DNA of 63,887 nucleotides, filler included, from Hausera hauseri (Eukaryota): the NCBI GenBank assembly GCA_046269625.1. It is 12 parts of 12 records of this genome, joined end to end, with 100 filler letters (N's around TTAATTAATTAA, not from the genome) between each part and the next. Parts side by side here need not be neighbours in the genome. Positions count along the whole stretch, not along the records: positions 15,671 to 20,719 come from JBJURY010351822.1; 11 more parts are not named here. One strand, given 5' to 3'. The notes beneath the pieces were generated by a model. It was not told the origin of the DNA and did no database searches. It saw only the letters and a list, made by a program, of their open reading frames with translations. A program made the position numbers and the translations under genes. Below, piece after piece: positions 12,163 through 62,470 of the stretch. Positions within the stretch are counted from its first letter, which is position 1. Each line of letters starts with the position of its first letter.

Positions 12163-13596
12163 TCATTGGTCCAATATGATGGGCCTGTGGACATATTTGC
12201 CTGTGGATCTGGATTTGTACCGTATGGAATCTGGCTCGTATACTTCATCATCTAATACCAGTGTTTCATCCACCTGAATTTTACGTTTTCTTCCACTTTG
12301 TGATGCTGTAGGTGCTTTTCGCAGCGTATCAGAGGCCGCACTTTGGGTGATATATTCGTCGGACCATTTTATTTGTTTATATATTGATTGATAGCACTGC
12401 GCTAAGGCAGTGCTTCGGAGAGAGAAGCCCTTTGTATCATAAAATTTGCGGGCCAACTCTTTGTAGGTATTGGACGATAACTGATACCGACGGATAACAT
12501 CCTCGTGATATAAAATATCACGTACTCCCGCTATCCGTCGGATTGGACATTTGAAATGGTTCACAACCATTTCCACCACGTCGGCTCCAATAATTACTTT
12601 ATCCGTTATAACTTCTGTCACTTTCCTGTAAAAATCCACGGGATCAAGTTGATTGTTAATACTGGATTCTGTGAGGCCAGTTATATGCGTATCAAAATTA
12701 TTGATACGCTGTCTTGGTGTAATGATTCCATATAGTAGGGTGTCTCCGTTTATTGTTAGAATTGAAGCTTCAATAGGTTGAAGCTGATTCCACTGGTCAT
12801 AGGCCAAATTTACGGCTGCTATGACCATGTCTTTGTCTGAGACTTTTTCCAATCTTCTATAGGGGACTGTTCTGTATTTAACATAGTCAGGTTCTGGGAG
12901 GTTGAAGCATATTCCCTCTGGTAGGCCGGGATAAAATTTTTCTCGCTTGATTACTTCCATTGCCAGAATTACACGGTTTGTGCATGAACGGATTTTAAAA
13001 GTGTTATTCTGGAGAAAAGTATAATCGAACGCTAACGCATGTTCCGGGTCCACGTTAATTAAATCACCTTTAATAGCTGTCTTCTTATCTGTGGTCTTTA
13101 TCTGAATCTGACCTACCACGCCATACAAATTCATAGAATGAAATCGATCAGGCAGGATTATAATGTCATCGAGAAGAAATGACATAGCTTTAGTTAGTTG
13201 CATTATAGCAAATGATCGGTTGGCCATACTATACCCCTTGAGGTTGTTGGGGATTTGTTGGGTTTGAGGATAATTTAAACTGGTCACATTATTGTTGTGA
13301 GATACGAAATATTGATTTGAAGGGTTAGCGTTAATCATGTGACTTTTGACATTGCTATACCAATGTTTCGAACGGTTGATGGTCTGGATCTGATGGAACG
13401 TTGTAGCTGAGACTGCAAAAACAAGAGTCAATACATAATTTATCATGATACTTAGACACAATACAACGGTTATCAAACACACCAAATGGGTAATCGTTGT
13501 GGTTTGACTGTTACTATTTCTATTTAGTAAGATAAGTCGATGTTCGGCTATCTTTCTACTTAGGGTTGCGTATATTGCAATCCCTGTTACTAATTG
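12163..13596 (-). CDS. Retroelement extra ORF, in-frame after a single UGA: hydrophobic segment plus ISG20/REX4-like DEDDh-fold domain with degenerate catalytic residues
   Basis: The frame is open from 13596 to 12163. ASILTINGDTLLYGIITPRQRINNFDTHITGLT..KVIIGAD aligns by eye with the REX/ISG20 pattern SxVNxxGxxLYDxxxxPxxxIxDYRTxxSGxT..KxxVGHD. Confidence 0.7.
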   Translation of the reverse strand, partial: QLVTGIAIYATLSRKIAEHRLILLNRNSNSQTTTITHLVCLITVVLCLSIMINYVLTLVFAVSATTFHQIQTINRSKHWYSNVKSHMINANPSNQYFVSHNNNVTSLNYPQTQQIPNNLKGYSMANRSFAIMQLTKAMSFLLDDIIILPDRFHSMNLYGVVGQIQIKTTDKKTAIKGDLINVDPEHALAFDYTFLQNNTFKIRSCTNRVILAMEVIKREKFYPGLPEGICFNLPEPDYVKYRTVPYRRLEKVSDKDMVIAAVNLAYDQWNQLQPIEASILTINGDTLLYGIITPRQRINNFDTHITGLTESSINNQLDPVDFYRKVTEVITDKVIIGADVVEMVVNHFKCPIRRIAGVRDILYHEDVIRRYQLSSNTYKELARKFYDTKGFSLRSTALAQCYQSIYKQIKWSDEYITQSAASDTLRKAPTASQSGRKRKIQVDETLVLDDEVYEPDSIRYKSRSTGKYVHRPIILDQ

Positions 13597-13599
13597 TCA
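13591..13599 (-). promoter_or_regulatory. Candidate programmed stop-codon readthrough signal UGA-CAA-UUA
   Basis: It is the only stop in about 1135 in-frame codons, and its 3' context matches the CARYYA consensus. Confidence 0.7.
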
Positions 13600-15570
13600 G
13601 CTGGGGTTATCCGTATCTAACGGATTCGTTAGATTTCGCATATCTATTCTCACCCAGCTCCTTTTTCGCTTGTGTCGCCTGTATACAATTTTACTCACTA
13701 ATATCAATATTATTATGAAGACTACAGGGGTTATTAAACTTATGCATATTATTTCTAATTGGGAATGACTATATACTGCTCGTGTGGGTTTGGGTGTTAT
13801 CTTGTGGCTAATTGTGTTAGTTTTATGCGATACGTCTGTCTCATACATTACTCTCGTGATTGCTGTCATTATTTTAGTAGAAATTACCTTATTTTTATCA
13901 TCTAGCAATTGTAAAATTATTGTATATCGAGTATTAGGGTCTAATGCTGCGCATGGTACTACTAAATCATCTGGAGTTATGGTTCCCTTGGCTACCACTG
14001 TATCTTGTTTCTTACAACTAAACTTAATTTTTGCAAAATCTAAATCCGGTCTGACCGAAATGATTAATGCAGTTGGAGCTGCTACTACTGTGACATTTCC
14101 CCAGATTGATCGCTTTGTACAATAATAAGATGTGTAAGGTTTCACTAAAATGGTCATATCCGTTTTATTATTCAAGGACTGGGCAGGTGGTACCATAATC
14201 TTGTTCGGTATTTCATCATACTCCTTCTGGTTCTTGTATCGTATGAACATCGTCGGTCCTTTTCTCTGTATTTTATTTTTCAATTTTCCATGTTCTTTCC
14301 GTGACAGAGAATATTTTACCTCGTATATTTTTCCTCTTATTACGTTACAACAAACTTGTTGTTGTTCATCCGTTAATTCACATTTCACTAGTCTTTGTTT
14401 ACTTCCCAGTTCTTTTATGGATATTGTTATCCATCTAATGTATTCTAATTCTATCGTACTACTAATTTCTAGGCAACTTCGTCCACTTTTAAATCCCATC
14501 GGTCTTATTATTAGTTGAGCGAGTATTATTGCATCTAATAGGGTTTCATTCATTTCATGTCTATTAGGAACTCGTATATACCTGTGAAATTTGGTATATA
14601 GACTATAATAATAGTCTCCTTTCTTCTTTATGAGCGTAAGATGTACTTCATGTGTTCCTGAAGTGTCTATTAGACATAACGTTTCATTTGTCGACGAGCG
14701 TAGCATACAGTCATTATACCGCTCATTCGAGTTCTTTTCATAACCATAGATTGGGGTTGTTTGTATCCTTATAATATACTCGCCAGGCATTCGTCTGGTA
14801 GTATACCAGCGAATGCATTTTTGGCCTTTCATGGAGTACGTTATTTGGTATTTTAGGCTTTTTAACCATAGGTCTTCATTTATCGCCGTGGCATGTCGTA
14901 TCTTTGCTTGTTCAATTTCCTGTTCCGTCATCTGTCCTGCTATTTGGGGAATCATAAAGATAGTCGTTAATAATAGGCTCTTTATTAGCCAATGCAATCC
15001 GGGGATTGAACTTTCTTCTTTTACTTTTTCGGTAATACTTAATACAAGTTCCTTTTCGCCTTTTCTTAACTCGCTTCTTCGGGCTGCTGGCTTACATCTG
15101 TTAACATGGACCTTCACCGATGTATTGTTTTTCCTTAAAGATATGTTTGGCATATTTACCTTTTCTACTTCATATGGACCCTTATATGGTCTATCTAACT
15201 TAGATGTCTTACCTTTCTTAAGTGCCGGAGAATATAACATCACTTGATCGCCTATTTTGATTTTTGGTTGCTTAGTCTTTTTATCGTAATATTTCTTATA
15301 TTTGGATTTATAATCCTCTTGGTTCCCGCAAATCGTTTTGTAGGCCAATTGTAAACGTTCTTGCATTAATTGTTTGTAGTCTTCCATTTCCATCAAATGT
15401 GAGACAGGTCTCACATTAAAGTCTAAATCAATGGGTAATCTTGCATCCCGCAAATACATTAGATAAAAGGGGGTTTCTTTAGTGGCTTCATGCACTGACG
15501 TTCGATTTACGAATACACACGCATTGACATACTCATCCCAATCGTCTTGCCTAGTATTGACCACCGTTTG
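13597..15570 (-). CDS. Gypsy integrase C-terminus fused to a type I membrane protein (signal peptide, Cys/FN3-like ectodomain, TM); 5' truncated by contig end
   Basis: Integrase end DWDEYV..VHEATKETPFYLMYLRDARLPID and GDQV..SKLDRPYKGPYEV..VHVNRCKP. Then hydrophobic WLIKSLLLTTIFMIPQIAG, FN3-like ALDPNTRYTIILQ, TM LEIICISLITPVVFIIILILVSKIVY and basic RRHKRKR. Confidence 0.88.
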   Translation of the reverse strand, partial: QTVVNTRQDDWDEYVNACVFVNRTSVHEATKETPFYLMYLRDARLPIDLDFNVRPVSHLMEMEDYKQLMQERLQLAYKTICGNQEDYKSKYKKYYDKKTKQPKIKIGDQVMLYSPALKKGKTSKLDRPYKGPYEVEKVNMPNISLRKNNTSVKVHVNRCKPAARRSELRKGEKELVLSITEKVKEESSIPGLHWLIKSLLLTTIFMIPQIAGQMTEQEIEQAKIRHATAINEDLWLKSLKYQITYSMKGQKCIRWYTTRRMPGEYIIRIQTTPIYGYEKNSNERYNDCMLRSSTNETLCLIDTSGTHEVHLTLIKKKGDYYYSLYTKFHRYIRVPNRHEMNETLLDAIILAQLIIRPMGFKSGRSCLEISSTIELEYIRWITISIKELGSKQRLVKCELTDEQQQVCCNVIRGKIYEVKYSLSRKEHGKLKNKIQRKGPTMFIRYKNQKEYDEIPNKIMVPPAQSLNNKTDMTILVKPYTSYYCTKRSIWGNVTVVAAPTALIISVRPDLDFAKIKFSCKKQDTVVAKGTITPDDLVVPCAALDPNTRYTIILQLLDDKNKVISTKIMTAITRVMYETDVSHKTNTISHKITPKPTRAVYSHSQLEIICISLITPVVFIIILILVSKIVYRRHKRKRSWVRIDMRNLTNPLDTDNPS

Positions 15571-15670
15571 NNNNNNNNNNNNNNNNNNNNNNNNNNNNNN
15601 NNNNNNNNNNNNNNTTAATTAATTAANNNNNNNNNNNNNNNNNNNNNNNNNNNNNNNNNNNNNNNNNNNN

Positions 15671-15855
15671 AGAAGTATTCACTCTGCAGTTCATTTAGAA
15701 ACTGGACTCAGTCTATTTTCTCACTGCATATTTCATTTGTAAGCCGTTTAATTTCAGCTTCTAAATCTATTTTGTAATACTAAATATATAGATAATTTCG
15801 GAGAACAGATTTGAAATCATACCATTTGTCGTACTATTCCTTGAAACAACGCAAT
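15671..15855 (-). pseudogene. 5' end of a small-intron gene, decayed paralogue of 55328-55582
   Basis: (ATT)ALFQGIVRQM-[GT..AG]-YYKIDLEAEIKRLTNEICSEKID*VQFLNELQSEYF. Start codon mutated and one in-frame stop. Confidence 0.6.
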
Positions 15856-16038
15856 GCTTTTTTCAAGGCCCATATTTATAGCCAACCACCAAAATTAAAA
15901 CAAAAATTTTTTGACACAAACCGACCAATCCGATTACACCAATTTGGGGTGAGAATAGTAAAACCCAGTCTGCCGCAGAAATCTCACAACCAAAATTTTA
16001 ACAAATTTTACGCGCCAAATTCAAATTTTAAACTGCTG

Positions 16039-16505
16039 AGATCCAATAAGTCAGCAGATAAAAATTCTGAATAAGTCGTTGATATCCAATAAGTCAGCAG
16101 ATGAAGATTTAGAATAAGTCAGCAGATGAAGATTTTGATGAAGATTTTAATGAAGATTCTAAATGAACATTTTGTGAATTCTAAAATGAACATGGAACAA
16201 ATATTTTGTGATCCATTGAACAAACATTTTGTGATCCATTTTGTGACTATTTTGTGTCTTGAACAAACACTTATTAATTGGTTAACGTTGTAATAAATCT
16301 TATTCTCTTGTTACAGTTTATGTCGAGTCCCATCTGATGGACATTTCAATTTACTGTTACATGTAAGTGAATTGTTATCCAATTCAAAAATCAAAAAGCG
16401 GCTGAAATAATCAATTGAAAATTCACCAACATAGAATTGAAAAATTCACTAAAATAATCAATTTAAAATTCACCAACATAGAATTGAAAAATTCACTAAC
16501 ATAGA
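16039..16505. repeat. Cluster of short tandem/direct repeats
   Basis: AATAAGTCAGCAGAT x3, GAAGATTTT repeats, TTTTGTGATCCATT x2, AATTCACCAACATAGAATTGAAAAATTCACTAA x2. Confidence 0.8.
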
Positions 16506-17034
16506 AATCAGATACCATGATAATTTTAAAATCTGAAATGACGCATGATTTCTTAAAATAAAATATGATTAACCAGAGGTAAAATTTTAAAATTGAATAA
16601 ATAAACGATGTGGAATTGTAGTAAAGCAAACAAAAGCCTGACGAAGTTGATTTTAAAAATAGAATTTTACAATTAGAATGACGCAAACAAACAGTATATA
16701 AACTGATCATTCCAACATGATAGACACATTACTACAATTCACAATTTGAACTACAATTCATTTTAAACTTGATCCTTCAGTAGAAGTAAGTGAGGGTCAT
16801 TTCATAGGCAGTAGATTTTTACTAAAGTATTTAGAATTTGTTGTTTTGAGAATCGATCATTTCACGAGATTTGACCCGTATTAATCGTCGTGGTTATTAA
16901 ACGAAAAACAAAATTCGTCAGTCGGAACATAGTGAAAGCCCATCCATATCGATCAATATTAAGATATACGTGTCAAGAAATAAGAGTTGTTCCGAACATT
17001 TGAAATACATTCATTAGTTAAGTTAGAGTAGACT

Positions 17035-17080
17035 ATGGCAGAACAACATAATCAATATCAACAGACGGGAAGGAACGAGG
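17035..17080 (+). CDS. Candidate shared ATG leader exon (MAEQHNQYQQTGRNE + phase-1 G|GTAATG donor)
   Basis: A similar short exon with a phase-1 donor occurs at 62314-62356, in homologous flanking sequence. Confidence 0.4.
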
Positions 17081-18632
17081 GTAATGATTCAGTTAATTTT
17101 TGTTATAAGTTAATGGCCGCTAATATAATTTCTTGTATTTACTCTATTATTTTGTGATACAATAAATATTGTTTAAAATAAATTGTGCCAACATGACTGA
17201 TAATGCCGTTGAATGGATCTAGAGAGTTCATATGGCTTTATTGATGATTAGTAAATTCGCGACATGGAGATGGACAACAGACTATTAGATCCCTCGGCAT
17301 CCGATGTAAAGCGAATATTGATGAATATTGGAAGAATATGTAAAGGAAGATAATATTCCAGCCAAAAGTTATTCCTCAGCAGATCTACCAACTGTGACGA
17401 TAACTACCTTATTGATATATACGTGGAGGAATATAGATGAAGTCGTGTTGAATAGTCGGATAAGATGTCTTCTGCAGATTGACCTGATGACGATTTGATG
17501 GTGAGGTTTGTTTTGGGATTTTTTGTCTTGACTTTACTACAAAAATGGTTATAGTAAGTATATATGATATTACCAATGTTCTTGGACATTATTGTGAAAT
17601 TATCTATGATATACATGATTTCATAAATTACTCGTATAGAATTGATAACTTATTAGAATATCTGAATATCCTTGATGAAGTCGACAGGGTGATGATAGGT
17701 ATTTAACATGGCCAGCTCTGCGAGGTTTTGGTAATCAGGTGGAGACGAGATGTATTGAATAAATTGACGATAGAGTTGAATTTTAAGCGTATGAGTGGTA
17801 TGGAGTAAAGTTAATATTTTAGGTGAAACAGAAACTGTTCCTGATCGTTTATTGTTATAATATGTAGTGGATATTGTTATTGAGAATTCCCAAAAAATTT
17901 ATTTGTAAAGAAATAAAGGTTTACTTTGAGTGAAAGATGGACATGAAGACATGAAGAACAATGAAGAAACATTGTTAAGGATTTGTTCATTAAATATAAC
18001 TATATACTCTGTTTTAATAAAAATAGAAAAATACACGAGCTTTTACAATAATTTTCAGAAAATGGTAAGAATACAGTGTAAGAGATAAACATTAAGGACG
18101 TAATCATATAAGGATTTGTAAATTAAGCTTACCTTCAACGGAAACACTTTTATTGAGTAATATTCCCGTCGCACGCGTTTACTCTTAATAAAGTAGGATC
18201 CCAGTACTAACTTAACCATGATTTAGGTTTTATCATTATTCGAGAGAAGTAATCAGAAATAATAAAAGTAGGGAACAGAGCTTAAATGAACGGCAATGCT
18301 AGAACAAACGGAGTTTATATGACCCATTCCTTCAGATACGATATAGATAAAATTATTTTAGCAGTCCAAATTAAAGGTATAAACCCAAGCAGACAATCAT
18401 CATTAACACCATGTTCAATACAATTCAAGATTATCTGTGACTCCTACTCAATCAACAAATAAATTCAACGATAAACTCCGATGATTTTATATGTGGATAC
18501 TTATTTAAGGTTAACAAGAGACCCTTGTATCCAACATATAAACTGGTGCCCCGATTGAGGAACATTCACTCTATTATAAAATATGTTTAGAATAATAATG
18601 AACGAAGAATTTATTATCTTGGATAATTTTAG

Positions 18633-18922
18633 ATGACCAGTATGAACCAGCACAATGTGATATATGCTTTGGGGCACTAGGAAGAAAGTATGCAATATTC
18701 AGATGCACTCACATAATGTGCACCAACTGTGCAGGTAACTGGTTATCAAAAAACCAGTCGTGCCCGTTCTGCAGACGAAAAATTACGTCGTACCAGTGCT
18801 GGGGGACCACCGTAGTGGTGATTCCAGACGACGAAGAAAATGAAGAAGAAACTGAAATAGATAGAGATCCAAATGACTTATATGCGTTTGGACCCAATGG
18901 GCTAGTCTATACGCCCATATGA
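18633..18922 (+). CDS. C3HC4 RING-finger protein terminal exon with acidic tail
   Basis: After TTTTAG|: CDIC-x12-CTH-x2-CTNC..W..CPFCR. AATAAA at 18931. Confidence 0.85.
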
Positions 18923-19143
18923 TAGTTATCAATAAATATTATGAGTTGACTTAAGAAGGCTAATATTAGAATAGTAAAAAACGGGAAAAAGGAAAAAACT
19001 AATTGAACAATTTAAGTAAAACGGTAGAAAAGAATATGTATAATTGCTTAAGTATTAATTACTAGAGTAGTAAATAGTAACAAGAATTCAGAAAAACTAA
19101 ACAGAATTTGATAATTAATCGGATTTGATTATATTGCTTTCAG

Positions 19144-19388
19144 GATGTGTTATCTGCCAGAGATTCCTTGAAAATCGGGATAAAGAAAGTTCCTGCACAT
19201 TATGCAAATTCATTGAAGAAATGGAACAGAAGGATCACCAGCTCCAATGCAGTAGTTGCGGAGAGGCAGTCAAACTGGAGGTAACTACAATGAACGAAGA
19301 ATGTTTTCTTTTGTGCGCTATATGCACGTTAACTCCAGCGGATTTGGATGAATTAGATTTGTTATTAGCATTAAATGACATTGAGTGA
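19144..19388 (+). CDS. Small Cys-rich zinc-binding protein exon (4 x CxxC)
   Basis: After CTTTCAG|: CVIC, CTLC, CSSC, CAIC and an acidic C-terminus. AATAAA at 19391. Confidence 0.65.
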
Positions 19389-19458
19389 TGAATAAATGAA
19401 TAAATTATTAAATTAAATAAAATAATACTATTAGTTTCTGAATATTTGTAATTTCCAG

Positions 19459-19870
19459 GCGAATTGTGTCCTATTTGTATGGAGGAATTATCGGTAAACC
19501 GAACTACGTTACCATGTGATCATCAATATTGCCTACAGTGTATAACTACATGGCTAAGTGAAGAAAACACATGCCCATGCTGCAGAAGAATATGTGGGAA
19601 CTGCAGAATATGTTCAAAGCTAGTAACAAACACCCGAGCTATACTCCCTGTCGGCACACCCTTTGTCAGGAGTGTATAAATGATTATCTGCGAAGTAATC
19701 GGTTTTGCCCAGTATGCGAGGAGTATATAGATTTCTACTCTCTGGGACCGTTGATAGTATACTTGGATATAGACGACAGACCGTCAAATATATTCATAAT
19801 CGACGAAGACGACGAAGATTGGCCAGATGAGTGCAGAAATCCACGGTCATATACGACTACCGAATATTAG
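19459..19870 (+). pseudogene. Tandem double-RING protein exon with one frameshift near 19645
   Basis: After TTTCCAG|: CPIC..LPCDHQYCLQCITTWL..CPCCR, then CRIC..PCRHTLCQECI..CPVC. AATAAA at 19898. Confidence 0.85.
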
Positions 19871-19962
19871 AAATAGACTATTATAATATGAACTAATAAT
19901 AAAATTATTGAAGTGGTTTTACTTGTGAATGATTGATAATTCATTTAATAAGACCTTTCCAG

Positions 19963-20259
19963 TATGGTTTGTCGGGATTACAGTTTGAGAGACGGATTTC
20001 AAATGCAATGTCAACACACAGCAACTAATATATATTCAACCTATAATCCACAAGGAACTTTTACACCCCTGGGATCCACATGTGCCATCTGTTTGAGTGC
20101 CTATTCAATTCAGCCGGTAACATTGACGAACTGTCGTCATGAATTTTTCCAGAATTGCATAAAAGAGTGGTTAGAATATCCACGATGTGCCCATTATGTC
20201 GAGGGACTAACAGAATTTTTAAAAAGGAATATAGTTATTTTACTATAAAAAGATTGTGA
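19963..20259 (+). pseudogene. RING-finger protein with a frameshift near 20175
   Basis: CAICLS..TNCRHEFFQNCIKEWL, then MCPLCRG in the shifted frame. Acceptor CTTTCCAG at 19955-19962; AATAAA at 20259. Confidence 0.8.
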
Positions 20260-20322
20260 ATAAAATTTAGTTTAGTTGTTAATGTTAATATTTAAGAATG
20301 AATTTATTTAAGAATATTTCAG

Positions 20323-20719
20323 CTATTCACGAAACGGTAATAGTTAAAATGATAAGAGCCAGAACATCGGAACAACTCAAGTGTCAAGGATCATCTCAAT
20401 CCAAAATGGTACAATATTTATTACATTACCAGAATAGACAGTTCGGACCAGCGTCGTTTATCAAAAAACGGATAAGCTACTCCAAGGCTATAGTATTAGA
20501 CAACTCCATGAGAGACACGCAAAATCGAAAAATATCGTTTCTAAAATATCCAAATTCACCCGTTTCAGGAGAACTAGCGCAATTATATGCCAAAGCCGGA
20601 TTATTCCGAACTCCGACAGGACAGATCAAATGTTTATATTGCCAAGGAGAATTTCAATATGAACAGACAAAGGATCGACCAAAAGAGAAACATAAGAAAC
20701 CGTACCATACTTGTCCTTA
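20323..20719 (+). CDS. BIR-domain (IAP-like) protein, truncated by contig end
   Basis: RKISFLKYP..LYAKAGLF..IKCLYC-x16-H-x6-CP gives the exact BIR Cx2Cx16Hx6C spacing. Preceded by a TTTCAG acceptor. Confidence 0.85.
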
Positions 20720-21131: not shown

Positions 21132-21560
21132 ATGGAAATAGTTATTCAATTGAAGCAATGGCAAATTTTTAATAGATTATCAATTTCAGACTTGGTACAA
21201 TGGTGGAAAGTACTTGATACTAATCTGGTTGCGAGAGCAGCAGGTGATTTTGGATTTAAAGAAGATTTAGCGTCAATAGCATTGACAACAACAGATTACA
21301 GCTCTATAGAAAATATAATTATCGTGTTAAATCAAATGTACATTCACCGATTGTATGATACAAATTACTTTATTACTGTTGAAAAAGTACGCGGTGAATT
21401 AACGAACTTAAAAGAGAAAATAATGGAAAAAGTACGAGACTGTCAGTTTGTGTGTACTATGGAAACAAAGAATAGCGGATACGGTATTCTTAATGTGCGG
21501 CCATCTTGTTGTTTGTCAAATGTGTTTTACCAAAGTAACAACCCAATATCCAGAATATAG
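21132..21560 (+). CDS. Hypothetical protein, 142 aa
   Basis: ATG-initiated ORF with globular composition inside the pPolB-associated gene block. Confidence 0.45.
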   Translation: MEIVIQLKQWQIFNRLSISDLVQWWKVLDTNLVARAAGDFGFKEDLASIALTTTDYSSIENIIIVLNQMYIHRLYDTNYFITVEKVRGELTNLKEKIMEKVRDCQFVCTMETKNSGYGILNVRPSCCLSNVFYQSNNPISRI

Positions 21561-21765
21561 ATATGCTATAATGGAAATTGTACACATTTATTACGAACGA
21601 CACCTTCTCCAATAACTAAACGTGGGCTTCAATGACGTGGAGGTAATTTGTATCATTGTAATATGAAACAATACTCATAAAGTAAATGTCTATTGTTTAC
21701 AATGAAAACAAACCTTTTATATCAATAGAGATGCTATGTTAGTTCACGTTTGTCTTTTTTAAACA

Positions 21766-26353: not shown

Positions 26354-29300
26354 GCTACCATATGTAGAGTTGTTTCTTCACGTGGCTTCTGTGTTGTTAT
26401 ATCTGTGGCAAGTATATTTTCTATGTCTTCGCCTTTTTGTAATCCTGGATAAATACTTTCTGCTAAAGTGCATAAGGTAATTGTCTGATTTTGCTTTCCT
26501 GATGCATTAATTTGTATTATGTACTCTGTCTGACGTTTTAATGCGTTATATTCTACTTGTCGTGTAATTTGTATAAGTTTTACTTTTTATCTGTCATATA
26601 AGGTTCGACAGTTTATTTTTATATAGTAGTTTAATTCTTTGTCAACAATGAACACTATTCTCTACTGATGGACCGAAAATCTTATAGGTATATCTTTAAT
26701 TTCTGTTTTAGGTATATTGTTTGTTGTAGTAATTCGGGCGGTCGACATTTTAGTCGGGGTTTCCATAGAAATTTTCCAAATTCTATTTTCTGGATAGTAG
26801 GGTCGTAATTGTATACTTGATTGATTAGGCCGTATCGCGTATAAGTCAAATTTTACTTTGATTTCTTGGTTCACGGGTATTTTACAACACAGATGTTGCA
26901 CATCTGCATGAATGAAACAATATTTTATTTTCGGAGTTGGTCCTATTGCTGCCTTAAATACGATACAGATTTCCCGATTGACGGTTAGCTCCGTCCGAGT
27001 ATTTACTTGAATACATTGTCTTTCCTTATTCACGGAGATTCTATGGATATTTTAGTTTAGTAGTCTTATGGCTGGATTAGTAGATCGTAACATTTTGTTA
27101 ACTTTTATTCCATGCTGCCTATTCCCAGAGGGATGACTAGTTTGAATTGTGGTTTTGTTTCATTAATTTTAGATAAATTCGGTAGGTACAGAGGATAGGT
27201 CAGATTAAAAGTATGTCCGAAATCTATGTCGCAACATTGCGTACGTTCTCCGGGCTCAAAATCACAATTCTTTGCTTCTTTTGTTATTACATCGACTACG
27301 ACAATTTGGATCCTTCCAGAATTTTGGTGTGGTTTCCGTGTTTTAAATCCAACGCATGTGGAGTTAGGTGAATAATAATGGATCCTTATTGCTTGTAATA
27401 ATCTTGTATCTTCTTGTCTTTAATTTGCTTCGACTGTTGATTTCTTTCCGTTTTAATAACCTCCAATCTTGCTCCACTTTTCCAAATTCTGTAACTGTTG
27501 TACCACTCTTTAGCTTGTGTTCTCGGGATATAGGAGGCAATTAACGATAATGCTAAAACTATTTCAACGTACGATATTGGTCTATTGATTATGAAGGATA
27601 TTTTCCTTTCCCCTTTTCCTTGATTCGAGCTGGATCGCAAATTAGAGCGTTTTTCAGGTCTTATTTCTGTTTTAACAATTCTCTGTATGGATACTGTTTC
27701 TTCTTCACCATTTGTATTAATGTGTACAGTAGTTGGTGTGGTTTGAATAACTTCATAAGGTCCTCGTCCTGTACGAGTAAGTTTTAATGATGTACCTTTC
27801 TTTGCAACTAGATAGCGCACGTAGACCCAGTTCCCTTTTTCTAAATCGTGGGGTTTGGCCTTCTTATAGTATTGTTTCCTAAACTGTTTTTGATACTCAA
27901 GAGTGAGCGTTTTTGCTATATCCCAACATTTTGGTAATCGTATTTGCAAGTCTTTTGCGAAATTTGGTTCTAAATCTTCTGAATTTGCGTGATAAGGAGT
28001 CATCCCTAAGTCCGTAGGTAATATTGCTTCGTGTCCATACATCATAAAGAGTGACGTAAATCAGGTGGCCGGGTGTAAAGTAGTATTGATAGCAAATTGC
28101 GTTCCTTCTAAAAATTTGTCCCAGTACTTTTGATCCTTTGCTAGTACAGTCGATAAGATTCGTGTAACTGTTGCATTATACGTTTGACCATCCCACTACA
28201 CTGAGGGTGATATGCAGTAGTAGTTAGTCGTTTGATTTCGAAAATTTTAGAAATTTTGTCAAATAATTCTCTTGTAAAAATTCTTCCTCTATCGGTTAGT
28301 ATTTGATCGGATGGTCCGTATCTGCAGATGATTTTCCTTACTACTGCGTCGGCTAGAGTTTCCGCCTTTTGATCGATTAGTGCGATCAATTCCACAAAGT
28401 GTGTTAAACAATCTACGCACGTCAGAATATATTTGTTATTTTTATGTGTTGTATGTAAAGGTCCTACTATATTCATAGACATAGCTTGTATAGGCCTGTC
28501 TGGTACATCGATTGGTTTTAATTCTGCTATATAGTTTTCACTTTCTTTTGCTTTGTTGCACAGACTTCATAGGCGTCTACCCAGTTCTTTACGTCGATAT
28601 AAACGCTTGGCCAGTAATACTTATTTAATATTCTTTCTAATGTTTTCTTCCATGCCATATGTCCAGCTAAATGTGAATCGTGTTCGGCCATTAACACTTC
28701 CGTCCGTAATCCTTTTGGAATAACTACCAGTTTCCATCCCTTTCGTTCGTAATATAAAATATTATCCAGATTTGATGTATAATATTTGTGTACGTGTCTC
28801 TGTAAGTGTTTCTTTAGTTGACGTCCTCTTGGTATCTCATCTTGCTCGTCAAATTTGACTATTTGTTGGATAACTTTATCTTTAGCTTGTTCTGCAGAAA
28901 TTTCGATTGCTTTATTTAGTGTTAGGGTCTGCTGTTGCTCGACTAATTTTTCGAGCTGGGCTTTCTTCATGGTCGTAATTGTGCTTGTCTTTGTTTTAAG
29001 ACTTGATAAAGCGTCTGCGTCAATGTGTTTGTTTCCAGGTTTATATTGGAATTCAATGTTGTATCGGGAGATTTCCTCAATTCACCGATTTAATCTACAT
29101 GTTGGGTTATTTGCCCGTCCTTTAACGTTGTAACCGCCTTGGGATTGGTAACTATAATAATTTTCTGCCCATAAACGTAGACATTGAAATGCCTTAGGGC
29201 TTCTTTTACGGCTAGAGTCTCAAGTTCAGATACTGAATAATTTTTCCCAGCTTTTTTATGCGATCGTCCTCCATATGCAATTGGATGCTCCAATTCTTCG

Positions 29301-31967
29301 CCTTCTCGTTTCTGAGCGAATTCGTAACCAATTCCTTCTTTACTTGAATCTGTTTTAATTATAAATTGTAAATTAAAATCGGGTTATCTTAACACTGGTT
29401 CACTTGTTAAAAATTTCTTCATTTCGTCGAATGCTTTCTGTTCAACATCGGTCCATCTCCATTTGATACCTTTTTTAATAGCCGATATAGTGGCGCGTTT
29501 ATTCTCGAATTGTCTGGCACATATTTCGCATAATATCCACATAAGCCTAACCAATGTCTCAACTCTTTCTGGTTCTGGGGTTCCATACAATCCAATATTT
29601 TATTTATTAAAGATTTATCTGGTTTTAACCCTCCTTCAAAGACTATATGTCCTAGATAAGATGCAGCATTTTGTGCCCATTTAGATTTTTTTGGGTTCAA
29701 TTTCAATCCTGCCTGTTCCAACCGCATAAGTGTGTTTTGATATCATTTTGGTGTTCGTCTTCTCTTTTTGATGCTATCATTACATCGTTTAAATATGCGA
29801 ACGCGTGATCTAGTCCCATTAACATCTTATTCATCATTCTGGTGAAAATAGCTGGGCCGGTTACACCGAACGGCATGACGTTAGATTCGTAAACTCCGTC
29901 GTGTGTCTTGAACGCTGTTTTATAGTGGTCATCTTCTTCAATTTCCACTTGCCAGTATCCGGATTGTAAATCTAGTGTGGTAAACCATTNNNNNNNNNNG
30001 CTTCTTTCACTGATGGTAACGGAAATGAGCCTTTCATCATGAGCGTATTTAGGGCTCTGTAATCTATACAGAATTGGTGTTTAGTGTACCTTTTTTCTTA
30101 ACCATGAGTATTGGTGAGTACCAAGATCGATAGCTTGGTCGTATTCTGTCAGCTTTTAACATGCGTTCTACCTCTTTGGTTGTTTCAGGCCTTAATGAAT
30201 GCGGTGGTGGATACCATTTAGGCATCTTTTGCTCTTCCAAGTCAATTTCATCATTGGAGCCAGGTTTCTTTTTTAATGGAATCGTTAATCTTAAGGTTTT
30301 TGCTATGCCTATATCTTCTTCATTTTGTGCAATAATCGACTTATATCTAAATGGTAATTCGTAAAACTGACAATACGCTTCTGGTGAAAATTTTATTTCG
30401 ACGTGAGGTGGAAATTCAGCATATTTATATGGTTTTTCTTCGATTATTATTGTTGACACCTTATAAGTATGACCCAATGTAGTATTGGCGTACGACGTTA
30501 CGGGAGTTGATGCATTATTTACTAACCTGATTGGTACTCTTCCTGTCGTTAATCTTGTCAAAATATTACTAAGTATAATATTTGGATTAACGTCTTCTTG
30601 TGGCTCAAAATATACTGGTTGGTCGTCCTCTTCGCGGATTTGAGCATAAATTAGCATTTTGGTTCTAGGCGGTATATTTTCGTCGACGGGAATCCATACT
30701 TCTCCCTGTTTGCTTTCTTTCATTGTCTTGATACCTTTTACTGGTCCGAGTTCTATTAGTTTTCCGGTTTGTAAGTTTATTGCGATATTGTTAATTGCTT
30801 TAGTATATCGCAACCCAACACTACGTCATCGGTTAGTTGGTCCATTATGGCAAACTCGTGTCGGAGGTTTTGGCCCATTAATTGAACTAGGGGGCTCCAC
30901 TTAAATTTCGGTTTGGATTCTTGTCCGAAGACTCCGATGCTACCTGGATTTGATGACGATGCAGGCTGCAGTTGTTTCCGTAATATAGGCGGTATTGATT
31001 CTAATTTTATAAATGAGTCTCTGATCCTGTGTCGATTAAAGTATAGACTTCCCAATCTTCAATGGTAATCTTTGTGAAGGGTCCCTCTTCCATAACTGTT
31101 CCATAACAACTTGATATGTCTTTTGGTCTTTTAATTGAAGAATTTTGTGTCCGTTTATTGTTATTTCTGGTGATAAGATGATATTCTCGGTCAACTGTTT
31201 CAGTTCTTCGTTAGGGTATAAGTCGTTGATTGCTACACCAATTGCATTGTTTCTAATTAACGGTTCTTGTACTATAGAATTTTTGAACGATTTCACTCCT
31301 TGTGTTCCCCAGACTGTTGATCTGGTCTCTATATTGCGAGCTATTCTCGGTGAGTACAATACCCTATGGTCATCTTCCGCTCGTCTTTGACTAGTGATTT
31401 GCATTTTCTTTAATACTCCGTATTGTTTTGTTCCTTCATAAGGATCTTCACAGTTAAAAGGTTTCTGACAGAATGCCGATCTATATGACACCATAGATGT
31501 TTTGTCGCAATCCTCGTATATTGGAGTTGTTGGCGGTATGATGGGCAAAGGTGCCTTAATTACTGAATACATTTTGTGTCTATTTGGTCCGAGGATTACT
31601 TCTTCCTTAAGCTCATCATCATCTGAATTATTTCTTCGCGTCATATGTTTCTTAACCTTGCGTTTCAGCCGAAATATGGCTCTTGCTCGTCGTTTGTAAT
31701 TATAGTAGCCGACATGACGTTCAACGTCATATTTCCATCCATTTTCCTCATATGCTTTAAGCATTTTGCCGAATGGGATGATGATTGCGGTTAAGATTTT
31801 GCAGGAAAATCCTGTTAATGTAAATATTTCATACCCATTTTTAACTGCTTGGATTACCGCTTTTACTAGTTGTACTAAGAAATAGATTGATAAAATTTAG
31901 ATGCGGCTTGCCCAAAAATTAAAAATCTTCCCCATATCTTGTAGAGTATTTCGGTAGTTACCCAGAT
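26354..31967 (-). mobile_element. Decayed Ty3/Gypsy element with integrase-fused ectodomain
   Basis: Protease LIDTGS/VVLGCDIL, dUTPase-like insert, RT (LDLQSGYWQV, MPFG, YLND), RNase H (YSVSELETLAV), integrase (HDSHLAGHM, TDRG, TTAYHPQ), then signal-like IVLALSLIASYIPRTQA and Cys/FN3-like modules. Confidence 0.92.
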
Positions 31968-37146: not shown

Positions 37147-37417
37147 ATGTTGAAAACTTGTCCGATTTGTTGGGGGCAGATGCATAACAATGCGTTTGGC
37201 TACATGGGGCACACATACTTTCTGCATAGTCCGTCTGCAGAAATGGCTAAGCAGTAAAATGTCTTGTCCGTTATGCAGAACAAAGTGTGAGTATGTGGTA
37301 GTCCAGAATGCTGAAGACCAGTGCTTGTATGTAACATGGGTAGGTTGTGTGATAAAAATATTACATGAATTCTTACCAGACAGCGACAGTGACAGTGATG
37401 ATACTATTATTATGTGA
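37147..37417 (+). pseudogene. RING-finger gene between the two pPolB genes (frameshifted)
   Basis: MLKTCPICWG / HTFCIVRLQKWL..SCPLCR plus an acidic DSDSDSDD tail. Confidence 0.75.
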
Positions 37418-50762: not shown

Positions 50763-51061
50763 TTTCTCTCTCTGTCCCTTTCTCTGTCTCTGAATCTGTC
50801 TCAGTCTCTCTGTCTCTCTGTCTCTTTGTCTCTGTCTCTCTGTCTCTTTATCTGTCTCTATCTCTGTCTCTGTCTCTGTCTCTGTCTCCGTCTCTCTCTC
50901 GGTCTGTGTCTGTGTCTCTCTTTGTGTCTGTGTCTCTGTCGCTCTGTCTCTCTGTATCTGTCTCCGTCGGCCAGTCTGTCTTATTTGTCTGTCTCTCCCT
51001 ATCTCACTATCTTTCTCCCTGCCTCATTCTCTCTTCATCTCCCTCTCTCTCGCTCGCTCTG

Positions 51062-51092
<31 letters not shown>

Positions 51093-52314
51093 GTCTCTCT
51101 GTCGTTGTCTCGGTCACTCTGTCTTTGTCTCTCTATCGCTGTGTCTCTCTCTCGCTATGTGACTGAATCTGTGTCTGTGTCACTGTATATGTGTTTCTGT
51201 GTCTCTCTCCCTGTCACTCTGTCTTTCATTCTCTCTGTCTGTCTGCCTCTCTGTGTCTCGGTCTCTCGCCATCTCTGTCTCTGTCCCTCTCTGTCTCTCT
51301 GTCTCTGTCTCTATGTCTCTGTCTCTGTCTCTTTGTCTGGGTCTGTGTCTGTGTCTGTGTCTCTGTCTCTGTCTNNNNNNNNNNNNNNNNNNNNNNNNNN
51401 NNNNNNNNNNNNNNNNNNNNNNNNNNNNNNNNNNNNNNNNNNNNNNNNNNNNNNNNNNNNNNNNNNNNNNNNNNNNNNNNNNNNNNNNNNNNNNNNNNNN
51501 NNNNNNNNNNNNNNNNNNNNNNNNNNNNNNNNNNNNNNNNNNNNNNNNNNNNNNNNNNNGTATGTCAGTCTGTCTGTCTCTCCCTCTCTCTCACTTGACC
51601 TCTGTTTCTCTCACTCACTCTCACTCACGCTCTCTGTCTCTCTCTGTCCCTCTGTTTCTGTCTCTCTGTCTCTGTGTCCCTGACTCGGTGTCTCTGTGTC
51701 TGTGTCTCTTTCTCTGTCTCTGTATATGCCTCTGTTTTTCTCTCTCTCTGTCTCTCTGTCTCTGTCACTGTCTCGGTTTCTCTCTTTCTCTGTATCTATC
51801 TATCTCTGTCTCTCTGTCTCTGTTTCTCTCTCTGTCCCTTTCTCTGTCTCTGAATCTGTCTCAGTCTCTCTGTCTCTCTGTCTCTTTGTCTCTGTCTCTT
51901 TGTATCTGTCTGTGTATGTGTCTGTGTCTCTGTATTTGACTCTCTCTGCTTCTGTCTGTCTCGGTCCCTCTGTCTCTCTGTCTCTCCCTGTCTCTGTCTC
52001 TGTGCCTCTCTCTCTCTGTTTCCCTGTCTGTCTCTCTGTCTCACTCTCTTTATCTGTCTCTCTGTCCCTNNNNNNNNNNNNNNNNNNNNNNNNNNNNNNN
52101 NNNNNNNNNNNNNNNNNNNNNNNNNNNNNNNNNNNNNNNNNNNNNNNNNNNNNNNNNNNNNNNNNNNNNNNNNNNNNNNNNNNNNNNNNNNNNNNNNNNN
52201 NNNNNNNNNNNNNNNNNNNNNNNNNNNNNNNNNNNNNNNNTCTGTGTCTCTGTCTTTGACTCTCTCTGCCTCTGTCTGTCTCTGTCTCTCTGTCTCTGCC
52301 TGTCTGTTTCTGTT

Positions 52315-52354
<40 letters not shown>

Positions 52355-52519
52355 GGTCTGTGTCTGTGTCTCTCTTTGTGTCTGTGTCTCTGTCGCTCTG
52401 TCTCTCTGTATCTGTCTCTATCGGCCAGTCTGTCTTATTTGTCTGTCTCTCCCTATCTCACTATCTCTCTCCCTGCCTCATTCTCTCTCCATCTCCCTCT
52501 CTTTCTTTCTCTCGCTCTG

Positions 52520-52550
<31 letters not shown>

Positions 52551-55150
52551 GTCTCTTTGTCGTTGTCTCGGTCACTCTGCCTCTGTCTCTCTATCTCTGT
52601 GTCTCTCTCTCGCTATGTGACTGAATCTGTGTCTGTGTCACTGTATCTGTGTTTCTGTGTCTCTCTCCCTGTTACTCTGTCTTTCACTCTCTCTGTCTGT
52701 TTGCCTCTCTGTGTCTCGGTTTCTCGCCATCTCTGTCTCTGTCCCTCTCTGTCTCTCTGTCTCTCTGTGTCTCTGTCTCTGTCTCTATGTCTATGTCTCT
52801 GTCTCTCTGTCTGTCTGACTCTGTCTCTCTGTTTGTCAGTCCGTCTGTCTGTCTGTCTGTTTGTCTGCTGTCTGTCTGTCTGTGTGTTTGTATCTGTCTT
52901 TGTATGCCAGTTTGTCTGTCTCTCCCTCTTTCTCACTTTCCCTCTGTTTCTCTCACTCACTCTCACTCACGTTCTCTGTCTCTCTGTGTCCCTCTGTTTC
53001 TGTCTCTCTGTCTCTGTGTCTCTGTCTCGGTGCCTCTTTGTCTGTGTCTTTTTCTCTGCCTCTGTATATGCCTCTGTTTTTCTCTCTCTCTGTCTGTCTC
53101 TGTCCCTCTGCCTCTGTCTCTGTCGCTCTGTCTCTCTCTATGTCTCTTTGTCTCTGTCTCTCTGTCTCTGTCTCTCTCTCGTCTCTCACTGTCTCTGTGT
53201 CTCCCTGTATATGTGTTTCTTTGTCTGTGTCTCTCTCTGTCTCTCTGTCCCACAGTCTCCCTGTCTGTCTGTCTCTCTGATTTTGTCTGTCTCTCTGTGT
53301 CTGTCTGTCTCTCTCTTTCCNNNNNNNNNNNNNNNNNNNNNNNNNNNNNNNNNNNNNNNNNNNNNNNNNNNNNNNNNNNNNNNNNNNNNNNNNNNNNNNN
53401 NNNNNNNNNNNNNNNNNNNNNNNNNNNNNNNNNNNNNNNNNNNNNNNNNNNNNNNNNNNNNNNNNNNNNNNNNNNNNTCTCTCTGTCTCGGTATTTCTGT
53501 CTCTGTCTCTCTGTCTGGGTATATGTCTGTCTCTCTCTCTATGTCTTTGTCTCTCTCTGCCTATGTCTCTGTCTCTGTGTCTGTCTCTCTTTCCCTGTCT
53601 CTGTGTCTGTCCCTCTGTCTCTGTATCTTTGTCTTTGTCTTTGTCTCTTTCTCTCTGTCTATCTCTTTGCCTCTGTCTCTGTCTATCTCGATCTGTGTCG
53701 CCGTGTGTCTTTGTGTCTGTGTCTGTGTTGTCTGCGTCTACATCTCTGTCTCTGTCTCTGTCTCGCTGTCTCCGTGTGTGTCTGTGTTTTTGTCTCTGTC
53801 TTTGAATCTCTCTTCCTCTGTCTGTGTTTCAGTCCCTATCTGTTTCTTTGTCTGTCTGCCTCTGTGTCTGTCTGTCTGTCTGTATCTCCCTGTATCTTTC
53901 TCCCTCTCTTTCTCTCTCTGCCTCTCCCACTCTCGGTCTGTCTCTCTCTGTCTCTCTGGTTTTGTGTCTCTGTCTCTCTGTCTCTGTCTCTCTGTCTCGG
54001 TCAGTGTCAGTATCTGTGTCTCCGTCCCTGTGACTTTGTCTCAGTCTCTCTGTCTCTCTATATCTGTCTCTCTGTCTCTGTCTCTAAATCTGTCTCTGTC
54101 TCTGTCTTTCTTTGTCTCTCTCTGCTCTCTCTCTGTCTCTCTGTCTCAGTCTCTGTTTCTCTGTCTCAGTCTTTGTTTCTCTGTGTCTGTCTTTCTCTCT
54201 CTCTCGATCTGTGTCTGCGTATGTGTCTGTGTCTCTGTCTCTCTGTCTCTCTGTCCATCTGTCTCACTCTTTCTCTCTGTGTCTCTGTGTCTGTCTCGTC
54301 TCTCTCAGTCTCTGTCGCTGAATATCTCTGTCTCTCTGTCTCTGTCTTTCGGTCTCTGTCTCTCTGTCTCTGTTTCTCTTTCTTTGTGTCTCTCGGTCCG
54401 TCTGTGTCTCTCTCTCTCTCTGTCCATCTGTCTAAACTTTCTCTCTGTGTCTCTGTCTCTGTCTCTGTCTCGTCTCTCTCTGTCTCTGTGTCTCTATCTG
54501 TCTCTCTGTCTTTTTCTCTTTTTGTGTCTCTGCCTCTCGGTCTCTCTGTCTGTCTCTCTCTCTCTGCCTTTGTCTCTCTCTCTATGTCGGTCTCTCTCTC
54601 TGTCTTTGTCTCTCTCTGTCTCTGTCTCTCTGTCTCTGTCTCTGTCGATCTGACTCTCTGTAGGTCTCTATCTATGTTTCTGTCTCTGTCTCTGTGTCTG
54701 TCGCTATATCTCTGTCTCTGTCTCTCTCTCTCTGTCTCCTTCTATGACTCTCTCTGTCTCTCTGTCTCTGTCTCTCTGTCTCTGTTGCTGCCTCTGTCTC
54801 TGTCTCTGTTTCGCTGTCTCGGTATGTATATGTGTCTGTGTCTCCGTCTTTGACTCTTTCTGCCTCTGTCTCTGTCTCAGTCCCTGTCTGTCTCTGTTTC
54901 TGTCTGTCTCTGCCTCTGTCTGTCTGTGTCTCTATGTTTCTGTCTCTCGGTCTTTGTCTCTGTCGCTCTCTCTCTGTCTCTTTGTCCCTGTTCTTCTGTC
55001 TCTGACTCCCTTTGTCTCTCTGTCTCTGTCTCTGTATCTCTTTCTCTCTGTCTCTCTGTCTCTCTGTATCAGTCTCTGCCTCTGTGTCTCTGTGTATCTG
55101 TGTCCCTGTGTCTCTGTCTCTGTCTCTATGTCACTCTGTCTCTGCCTCTG
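50763..55150. repeat. Compound (TC)n/(TCTG)n/(TCTCTG)n microsatellite array with higher-order duplication and internal N gaps
   Basis: Extremely pyrimidine-biased plus strand. The diagnostic block at about 50898-51300 recurs at about 52352-52760. Confidence 0.97.
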
Positions 55151-55327
55151 AGTAGGGGGATTGGAGCGCACTGGGCCACCCCCCCCCCCAGGATCGATAA
55201 TCAATATTGTATGGGAAATTTATATGGNNNNNNNNNNNNNNNNNNNNNNNNNNNNNNNNNNNNNNNNNNNNTTAATTAATTAANNNNNNNNNNNNNNNNN
55301 NNNNNNNNNNNNNNNNNNNNNNNNNNN

Positions 55328-55582
55328 CTAAATTCCTCTTTAATGTTTGTCATCAATATCGATCGAACAACAAGTTCTACATAGTCTTCCTTTGACAGAA
55401 AGTATTCATTCTCCAATTCATTAAGAAATTTGACATAATCGATTTTCCCACTGCATATTTCATTTGTGAGCCGTTTAATTTCAGCTTCTAAATCTATTTT
55501 GTAAATCTAAGTATATAAATTATTTCGGTTAACAGATTTAAAATCATACCATTTGTCGCACAAATTGTTGAAACAACGCCAT
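55328..55582 (-). CDS. 5' end of a hypothetical gene with a 43-nt intron
   Basis: Exon 1 55582-55550 (MALFQQFVRQM), GT..AG intron 55549-55507, exon 2 IYKIDLEAEIKRLTNEICSGKIDYVKFLNELENEYF.. open to the contig end. Paralogue at 15671-15855. Confidence 0.65.
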
Positions 55583-55649
55583 GCTATTTACACACCAATA
55601 TTTTTACCCAACCACCAAAATTAAAACAAAAATTTTTGGCACAAACCGA

Positions 55650-55752
55650 CCAATCAAATTACACAAAGTGGGGGTGAGAATAGTGAAACCACGACCAGAT
55701 CAGAAAATGCTTTGTTAAAACATTTTAAAAAAATTTTGGCGCGAAATTCAAA
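55650..55752. promoter_or_regulatory. CCAAT box and adjacent E2F-like/CHR-like motifs
   Basis: CCAATC at 55650 and TTTTGGCGCGAAATTCAAA at 55734-55752. Equivalent motifs are conserved at about 15925 and 16006-16025. Confidence 0.45.
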
Positions 55753-56220
55753 TTTTGACACGTAGCTAAAATCCATACAGTACGCCCGCCTGTGTGTATC
55801 CACTTTGTGACTGTGTGTTTCCTATCTCCACCCTATTAAGCGCGCGTGTGTGTATAGTTTTTTCTACCCCATGACTCATCCGTGAACTTAATCTTTTCAC
55901 TTTCCCTGAGGGGGGTCTGATCTCATGCACTCTCATCCTACTACTACTGTTCATGATAAGCAATGTAAACATATGAATAACATAAGAGGTTAGGTCAAAT
56001 ATTATTATAATATAAGGGGATCGTGTAGATTAATATTGACTATTTATTCCTTAATATTTACTTCACCAGTCATAATACATCAAAGGAAAACAAAATGTAG
56101 TATAGTATTAATTCCAATTGTAGTTAAGTCACTCATATAGGAAACAGAAACATTATTAATACATCCTTTATTCAGAATTTATATGTTGACATGAATCAAA
56201 GGTTCATTAAAACCCCTATG

Positions 56221-61520: not shown

Positions 61521-62259
61521 ATAATTGAAGGATTCTTTCGTAAGAGCATAACACACAATGTGTTAGGACGGGAAAAACGGAATTTTAGGACAACTGTGGA
61601 ATCTTAGAACAATCTGAAATAATTTTTTTATACATTTTTGACATTTTGATTGGACTCGGAAATGAAATTTTGACTGATTATACTAACTTTTGACGGTAAT
61701 AAATTTTGTTTCTTTCGTTCTTTGACTCTGTGAAACCCATTGATGGGTGTCCTTTGTTTACTGTTATGTGTACGAGGTTGTGATCCATTTTGCGGCCATT
61801 ATCATGAATTTTATTGAGATCATGAATTTTGTTTTCCAGTCATAGTAAAAACCATAGATTATAATTACAAAATTGAATTAAAAATTCAAATATAAAAATT
61901 GGTCAGCCATTTATTTATATAAAATTAGTCAGTTAGCTAAGTATTTGACGTCAAACGAAAAATAAGAATTAAATTTAAATATTGGTCACCACAAAAATGA
62001 CGTCAAATCAAACGAATATACAAAATTAAATTTAGATATAAGCACTAGATCGAAGAGAATAAATACATACGAAAAGTATTAAACAACAATTTTTCAATTA
62101 CAATTTTATCGATATACAAATACGTCAATATATACATCCGTCATAAAGTCTGATACCGAAGTGATAGTGAATTATTACTAGCTGGTAAAGACTCGACATT
62201 GTTTCAAGAATTATTCTATTTATTGCTAGTTTAACCAGGATACTGAAATTACAACGATT

Positions 62260-62470
62260 TGGTACGAAAGCCTGTTTATATCGATTGTACACATCTAATA
62301 ACTACTCGACGACATGGCTGACCAAATATCAAACAACCAAATGGAAGAAATTAACGGTAAATCCAGTTTTTACTTTAAGATTTAAAACTATTTCCTTTAA
62401 ATTGCATTGCCGCATCTTTTATTGAATGTATTATTTGTGATACAATAAATGTTTTATACAATAAATGAAG
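62260..62470 (+). other. Homologue of the leader-exon region at 16930-17185
   Basis: GAAAGCC..TATCGAT upstream, ATG exon MADQISNNQMEEIN-G|GTAAAT (62314-62356), and shared TATTATTTGTGATACAATAAAT. Confidence 0.55.

Follow-up and report, generated by a model that had tools for sequence, protein, structure and literature searches.

The 63,887-nt stretch of Hausera hauseri DNA analysed here (assembly GCA_046269625.1; hereafter the window) includes a contig (15671-20719, 5049 nt, JBJURY010351822.1) on which a short exon beginning with ATG is followed by five zinc-finger units, the last of them cut by the contig end. As judged from its sequence, this contig probably carries, from a large retrotransposon of the long terminal repeat (LTR) type, the 5' LTR, the tRNA primer-binding site (PBS) and the first internal genes. 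The accessory units would act as alternative last exons joined to an ATG exon lying within the LTR. Since the leader lies in the presumed LTR and a tRNA PBS stands behind a hairpin, between the leader and unit 1, an LTR retrotransposon rather than a DNA virus is the most likely carrier. The features concerned are the following, a slash marking the exon end at donor sites.

16200-18543, plus strand: likely 5' LTR of about 2.3-2.5 kb, weakly collinear with copy 2 and ending at the hairpin and PBS
17035-17080, plus strand: ATG mini-exon, the predicted shared start exon, of 15 codons plus 1 nt, with phase-1 donor G/GTAATG; homologue at 62314-62356
17145-17183, plus strand: conserved motif with two AATAAA (17161 and 17177) just downstream of the donor, predicted poly(A) signal of the LTR R region
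62314-62466, plus strand: second, diverged leader copy (copy 2) on another contig, with an ATG exon of 14 codons plus 1 nt, G/GTAAAT and the same AATAAA motif
18486-18542, plus strand: hairpin, predicted stem at the U5 end, -16.0 kcal/mol, z -3.6 against 200 shuffles, ending two bases before the PBS
18544-18561, plus strand: tRNA PBS, TGG plus the complement of a tRNA 3' end, between the leader and unit 1
18633-18922, plus strand: unit 1, C3HC4 RING with acidic tail; phase-1 acceptor, stop, AATAAA at 18931
19144-19388, plus strand: unit 2, 4xCxxC protein of no known family; phase-1 acceptor, AATAAA at 19391/19399
19459-19870, plus strand: unit 3, two RINGs with acidic tail; phase-1 acceptor, frame broken near 19645 in this copy, AATAAA at 19898
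19963-20259, plus strand: unit 4, RING; phase-2 acceptor, own ATG at 19964, frame break near 20170, AATAAA at 20259
20323-20719, plus strand: unit 5, BIR with CxxC-x16-H-x6-C, cut by the contig end; phase-1 acceptor, own ATGs

The leader exon (46 nt, phase 1) is followed directly by GTAATG. Joined to the acceptors it opens frames of 111, 96, 88 and 164 codons with units 1, 2, 3 and 5, respectively, the last of these running into the gap at the contig end, and with unit 4 an open frame of 23 codons only. A first-pass annotation of this DNA had proposed that the exon is in phase with four of the five units, which is borne out. Its larger proposal, a shared leader with alternative last exons, gains independent support from copy 2, which keeps the ATG as well as the phase-1 donor and, behind it, the AATAAA. 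The two leader copies are 66% identical over 160 columns (E 5e-9, permissive settings), with the alignment beginning at the ATG in both; exon 62314-62356 of copy 2 retains the ATG, a phase-1 GT and the poly(A)-signal motif just downstream. Self-comparison of the window showed that 15673-16029 recurs at 55400-55756 and 17131-17183 at 62415-62466, the latter pair being 83% alike over 53 nt, with the AATAAA of copy 2 (62444 and 62460) in places matching those of copy 1. The poly(A) signal sits 80 nt behind the leader donor. The read-through frames of the leader (40 codons in copy 1, 23 in copy 2) are unlike each other, and therefore the donor, not a long ORF, is the conserved feature; compared at the protein level, the two copies showed no likeness above noise. 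Leader exon, donor and conserved AATAAA all appear to fall inside a long LTR. When the leader motif was searched for in metagenome contigs there were 4 matches, all confined to the motif and judged to be due to chance. Folding gave no support for a hairpin that hides the LTR AATAAA of copy 1 (z +0.5) and weak support for one in copy 2 (z -2.1), and the idea was rejected.

The five zinc-finger units come in the order RING, 4xCxxC, double RING, RING and BIR. All five acceptors read TTYYAG, a sequence found at 13 sites on the plus strand of the contig, and they occupy ranks 2, 3, 4, 6 and 7 among its 307 AGs by a simple pyrimidine-tract score, devised after the sites had been seen. In dinucleotide shuffles (3000 for each test) of the 90 nt preceding the first CxxC (units 1-3) or ATG 20349 (unit 5), an in-phase TTYYAG with no intervening stop arose in 1.0% (unit 1), 2.1% (unit 2), 0.6% (unit 3) and 2.7% (unit 5) of cases. 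An AATAAA lies no more than 39 nt from the start of the stop codon in each of units 1-4, a placement seen in 24%, 21%, 11% and 14% of the shuffles, respectively. The spacers between the units are 221, 70, 92 and 74 nt long. Units 1-3 possess no in-frame ATG before the first CxxC, while unit 4 has two and unit 5 has four (its in-frame ATGs include 20298 and 20349). What is found, in short, is one donor, several in-phase acceptors and one poly(A) signal per unit; the leader is needed by three units (1-3), fits a fourth (unit 5) and does not fit unit 4. The acceptor positions, the close spacing of the ORFs, the AATAAA at or after the stops of the four complete units and the want of an ATG in the first three had all been described in the first-pass annotation and hold good. 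It had also named unit 4 as the sole exception with an ATG of its own and a different phase; the phase and the ATG are as described, and unit 5 also has ATGs.

By Pfam, RING domains were recognized in unit 1 (E 2e-10), in both halves of unit 3 (3a, 6e-11; 3b, 9e-8) and in unit 4 (3e-8), and a BIR in unit 5 (1.2e-7), in agreement with the domains first assigned; unit 2 had no Pfam match. The description of units 3 and 4 as intact ORFs has to be given up. The double-RING frame of unit 3 breaks near 19645, and that of unit 4 near 20170, so that the last CxxC of its RING lies in another frame; four contigs of run X1 differ in length at the latter place. This run consists of Logan contigs of unknown kind, probably DNA and perhaps the window's own source. 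The two frame breaks represent either decay or mis-assembly.

It might be supposed that the units belong together as the exons of a single protein, or are pieces of a decayed polyprotein like that of the planarian Burro elements, and that the signals arise by chance in AT-rich DNA. The Burro RING and BIR motifs are indeed found inside one polyprotein (PMC6431247), two of the units are frame-broken here, AATAAA is common (18 on the contig), and a G/GTAA site lies inside each unit. We consider this explanation very unlikely, however: every unit closes with a stop codon, with AATAAA and an AT-rich spacer behind it, the shuffles fall far short of the acceptor pattern observed, and the internal GT sites would cut the domains, the one at 18735 in unit 1 being lost in 20 X1 contigs.

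Another possibility, also unlikely in our opinion, is that the acceptors are served by one or more different first exons, or in an operon-like manner by a trans-spliced leader, in which case 17035-17080 would be merely a short ORF of the LTR. Donor-like sites do occur upstream (GTAAGT at 16363 and 16786, GTAAG at 17554 and 18065), the frame opened by the ATG at 16337 arrives at the 16363 donor in the phase that suits unit 4 (phase 2), and one X1 contig skips 16254-16316 with GT..AG ends. Of these possible start exons, however, copy 2 conserves only that at 17035 with its donor, and not the 16363 donor; a leader lacking an AUG, moreover, would leave units 1-3 without a start. Flatworm trans-spliced leaders may end in AUG; such a leader corresponds to phase 0, and its open frames, of 15, 46, 12, 21 and 5 codons, miss the domains. 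In the same region 16254-16362 and 16696-16786 are possible upstream leader exons, with a TATA at 16696; the skipped segment measures 63 nt and its end, 16316, is the best-scoring acceptor of the contig.

Part of the evidence for the LTR itself is its weak likeness to the region around copy 2. Six 300-nt pieces of 16200-18543 are collinear with 61607-63561 at offsets of 45.2-45.4 kb, and five of the six score above the best of 8 shuffles; the likeness spans approximately 16210 to 18150. Short tandem repeats occur at 16032-16506, and the idea that the LTR starts at 16033 was abandoned. A second conserved block shared by the two LTR-like copies (16290-16380 and about 61700-61790) contains a short palindrome and common flanking motifs. 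Further downstream in the presumed LTR, 18336-18462 has a strong acceptor-like site (rank 5) and a short phase-2 frame which stops at the AATAAA at 18458 and has no Pfam match.

At the other end a CA is present at 18535-18536, 7 nt before the PBS. Complementarity between the PBS and the 3' ends of two tRNAs covers 15 of its 18 positions and, with CCA, 15 of the first 16; these are tRNA-Leu from viral contigs and not the primer tRNA of the host, for which elongator tRNA-Met is presumably the best candidate. Nuclear tRNA genes do not encode CCA, and a site matching it is therefore one copied from a mature tRNA, which is a mark of LTR retroelements. The place of the PBS, just inside the presumed 5' LTR, is that seen in LTR retrotransposons of the Ty3/Gypsy or BEL type. 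The PBS pattern gave 0 matches in viral contigs, and an Rfam scan of the 5049-nt contig gave no match. Contigs of X1 pile up over 18469-18614, three X1 joints break at 18561 or 18562 with 22-27 letters in common, and 29 X1 contigs carry one variant inside the hairpin. The pile-up and the breaks at the PBS form the pattern expected from many LTR-PBS junctions, and also from tRNA genes. Unit 1 starts 71 nt past the PBS, and the cassette is likely to be placed, as far as its sequence indicates, between the PBS and a gag gene beyond the contig end.

These observations bear on the nature of the carrier, which the first-pass annotation, in which the PBS (18544-18561) and the leader copy at 62314 had escaped notice, had taken to be an endogenous DNA virus or a giant transposon, the second of these being the closer guess. 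Were the carrier a Polinton/Maverick or other endogenous DNA virus, the shared-leader splicing would stand and the PBS would be a nested retroelement remnant or a chance match. The arrangement does work like the adenovirus late unit, and elsewhere in the window pPolB-like pieces are accompanied by a RING gene on two contigs. The window, however, is a chain of unrelated small contigs with fixed N44-TTAATTAATTAA-N44 spacers (100 nt) as joints, gaps of lengths other than 100 nt falling inside contigs, and the pPolB-like contigs are set apart by these artificial spacers and unlinked. The contigs next to the cassette carry Gypsy, pPolB-like and DNA-transposon pieces; the composition resembles the repeat bin of an AT-rich animal assembly, and the order of the contigs is uninformative on linkage. 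Furthermore, the RING at 37147 has its own ATG. The PBS is in sense, follows a hairpin in the interval that separates the leader from unit 1, and is common to many X1 contigs; among the viral contigs searched, none encodes a relative of either unit 1 or unit 5. On this evidence, and given the CCA-containing PBS, which points to an LTR retroelement, we regard a viral carrier as quite improbable. Polinton/Maverick genes (pPolB, integrase, capsid, ATPase) were absent from the contig frames of at least 35 aa, and no long inverted repeat was found inside the contig, which covers one end region only. Of the two RING sequences on pPolB-like contigs, that at 21424-21612 (plus strand) is frame-broken and of the IAP type (PF13920, E 2.6e-8), and that at 37147-37416 (plus strand) is also frame-broken and has an acidic tail.

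Relatives of the units are abundant in X1, where depth, which is not copy number, was used solely as proof that relatives exist. At 85% identity 4319 X1 contigs align to the contig and, at 80%, 451 align to 18250-20420; most are less than 95% alike, and relatives of the units at 80-95% are numerous. One X1 contig, about 81% alike, spans 18568-18927 (unit 1) with its sole gap upstream of the acceptor and an AATAAA after the stop. Among the variants displayed (40 of 262 and 40 of 278 rows) 39 lie in the ORFs, and 18 of these are synonymous, where 29% would be expected (p 0.015). The length variants listed number 11, of which 6 fall in the spacers of the cassette, counting 19388 at the stop of unit 2, and 3 in the ORFs.

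Several points weigh against an LTR retrotransposon with alternative last exons. Neither gag nor pol is present on the 5-kb contig, nor are a second LTR, a polypurine tract or a target-site duplication, and the 5' end of the LTR was not found, the likeness to a separate high-copy repeat fading near 16057. The window stops about 1530 nt past the second donor, just short of the expected start of a cassette and before the PBS of copy 2 would come, so that the linkage of leader to cassette comes from one copy only. With unit 4 in phase 2 and unit 5 having ATGs of its own, just three units need the leader. None of 13 X1 joints links 17080 to an acceptor, X1 being probably DNA. An abundant X1 relative of unit 1 is unlike the window before 18568, and unit 1 is therefore not always beside the PBS region but occurs in another setting too. 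The synonymous excess is weak, resting on the displayed subset, with unit 2 contributing only 2 of 7. Polinton-like contigs of the window also carry RING genes (21424-21612, 37154-37414), and at least five AATAAA sites would lie in the path of the genomic RNA. The lack of gag and pol on the contig and the many diverged unit relatives in X1 would also suit a non-autonomous LTR element without gag-pol, or a host-kept locus retaining LTR, PBS and cargo cassette. This is scarcely probable: the contig ends inside unit 5, 2.2 kb past the PBS, so that the downstream part is not covered, and the two frame breaks argue against a host-kept gene.

Protein searches added little to the Pfam assignments. 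Unit 2 had no relatives among 1.84 billion representatives; its matches in the ESM Atlas were only unnamed small proteins of low recognition, and its single-sequence fold (pLDDT 49.9) was unusable. Searches with units 1 and 5 (near for unit 1, longer and near for unit 5) likewise gave no relatives, and none was encoded in the viral contigs searched for these two units. In the ESM Atlas unit 5 fell among generic BIR clusters, and in the PDB it had one weak match, to NAIP (E 0.001).

The constituent parts of the proposed element can be compared with known systems. In the adenovirus major late unit, as in Drosophila mod(mdg4) and lola, a constant 5' part is combined with alternative 3' exons having their own poly(A) sites; these are a DNA virus and host genes with neither LTR nor PBS, unlike the likely LTR element with a PBS described here. 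Planarians have giant Ty3/Gypsy elements, Burro/GYPSM1, whose RING and BIR motifs are described within a polyprotein of about 5000 aa that begins with Gag; an upstream accessory ORF is noted for the element of D. tigrina (PMC6431247). The RING-BIR region of Burro1 has been reported to protect planarian stem cells (PMC13465017). The element described here, likely an LTR retroelement too, has in common with Burro a RING and BIR cargo of the kind linked to ubiquitination and apoptosis; in contrast to the Burro polyprotein, the present contig has separate units of 80-130 aa after the PBS, each with its own acceptor, stop and poly(A) signal and with no Gag before them. In the MDG1 group of Drosophila (412, mdg1, Stalker) sORF1 and sORF2 come after the 5' LTR and ahead of gag, and a poly(A) site inside the element gives a short transcript; no splicing was seen in long reads, and sORF2 is fusogen-like (10.1101/2025.03.14.642691). 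The position after the PBS and the AATAAA sites are similar here, any gag being expected beyond the contig, but instead of two unspliced ORFs with their own start codons there are at least five units of RING/BIR type, three of them without a start codon (units 1-3).

In Arabidopsis EVD and plant Ty1/Copia elements splicing coupled to early termination yields a subgenomic gag mRNA (PMC5580714), that is one product, Gag, as opposed to a panel of alternative last exons. The foamy viruses have their major donor upstream of the LTR poly(A) signal, as is the case here, and binding of U1 suppresses the 5' site (PMC3694450); the present contig differs in that the LTR would contain a coding exon with an ATG and the internal units have private poly(A) sites, neither of which belongs to the foamy virus arrangement as described. 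Rotifer LTR elements capture extra ORFs, which as a rule are expressed from spliced messages (PMC5408684). The literature search, which was partly noisy and left outside it the main Burro accounts (these may describe spliced accessory units), returned no LTR element in which an ATG exon in the LTR feeds several private last exons. The single parts thus have precedents, namely the Burro cargo, the MDG1 short ORFs, EVD and the foamy viruses; their combination appears not to have any among the systems found.

Other parts of the window also contain mobile elements. The stretch 15671-16057, on the cassette contig, resembles 55400-55756 (82% between the copies); it is a very abundant dispersed repeat with the highest X1 depth and is probably separate from the element. 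A broken Gypsy element at 26354-31967 (minus strand), on a contig unlinked to the cassette, has a weak match to the PF24664 fusion glycoprotein (E 0.0022, below cut-off) ahead of a protease motif, then reverse transcriptase, integrase (PF00665) and a further ORF, a gene order like that of Burro, in which a fusion glycoprotein stands between gag and protease and the element measures close to 30 kb. At 12163-15618 (minus strand) an integrase C-terminus leads into a long transmembrane ORF and then a 477-codon ORF, for which there was no convincing Pfam match and whose motifs we take to be exonuclease-like; an LTR-like stretch with TATA, AATAAA and donor-like sites is also present. Rotifer LTR elements with DEDDy ORFs provide a precedent for this layout (PMC5408684). 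Lastly, 50763-55227 is a 4.4-kb degenerate (CT)n/(GTCT)n tract which gives rise to long spurious ORFs.

If the contig is indeed the beginning of an LTR retrotransposon with alternative last exons, transcription would start at the LTR promoter and 17035-17080 would be the first coding exon. U1 bound at the leader donor might suppress use of the LTR poly(A) site in the manner of foamy viruses. A splice joining 17080 to one of the acceptors would make that unit the last exon and activate its own poly(A) site, the U-rich stretch downstream of each poly(A) site possibly doubling as the 3' splice region of the next unit. The result would be one short mRNA per protein, each lacking the PBS and hence not reverse-transcribed, while RNA left unspliced would continue past the cassette into gag-pol and serve as the genomic RNA. 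The predicted products are small RING E3 ligases with acidic tails, one zinc-binding protein of unknown kind and an IAP-like protein, whose activity is assumed from their families; they may blunt host apoptosis or defence in cells in which the element is active.

LTR retrotransposons are usually read as gag-pol(-env) plus at most one or two extras. A start exon borne by the LTR, combined with several private last exons, would, if true, be a new route to many accessory proteins and would explain the capture of such cargo; annotation based on ORFs would miss such a cassette because most of its units have no start codon. That RING-BIR cargo can matter for host stem cells is indicated by the precedent of Burro1 (PMC13465017). 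Tentatively, we suggest that a clade of animal LTR retroelements could possess, within the LTR, an ATG exon ending in a phase-1 donor and acting as a built-in exon trap, by which any phase-1 last exon landing behind the PBS would immediately become an accessory gene. Such an element would collect E3 ligases and IAPs and express them as a modular panel like that of adenovirus, and each of its 3' or solo LTRs could supply a start exon to downstream host exons.

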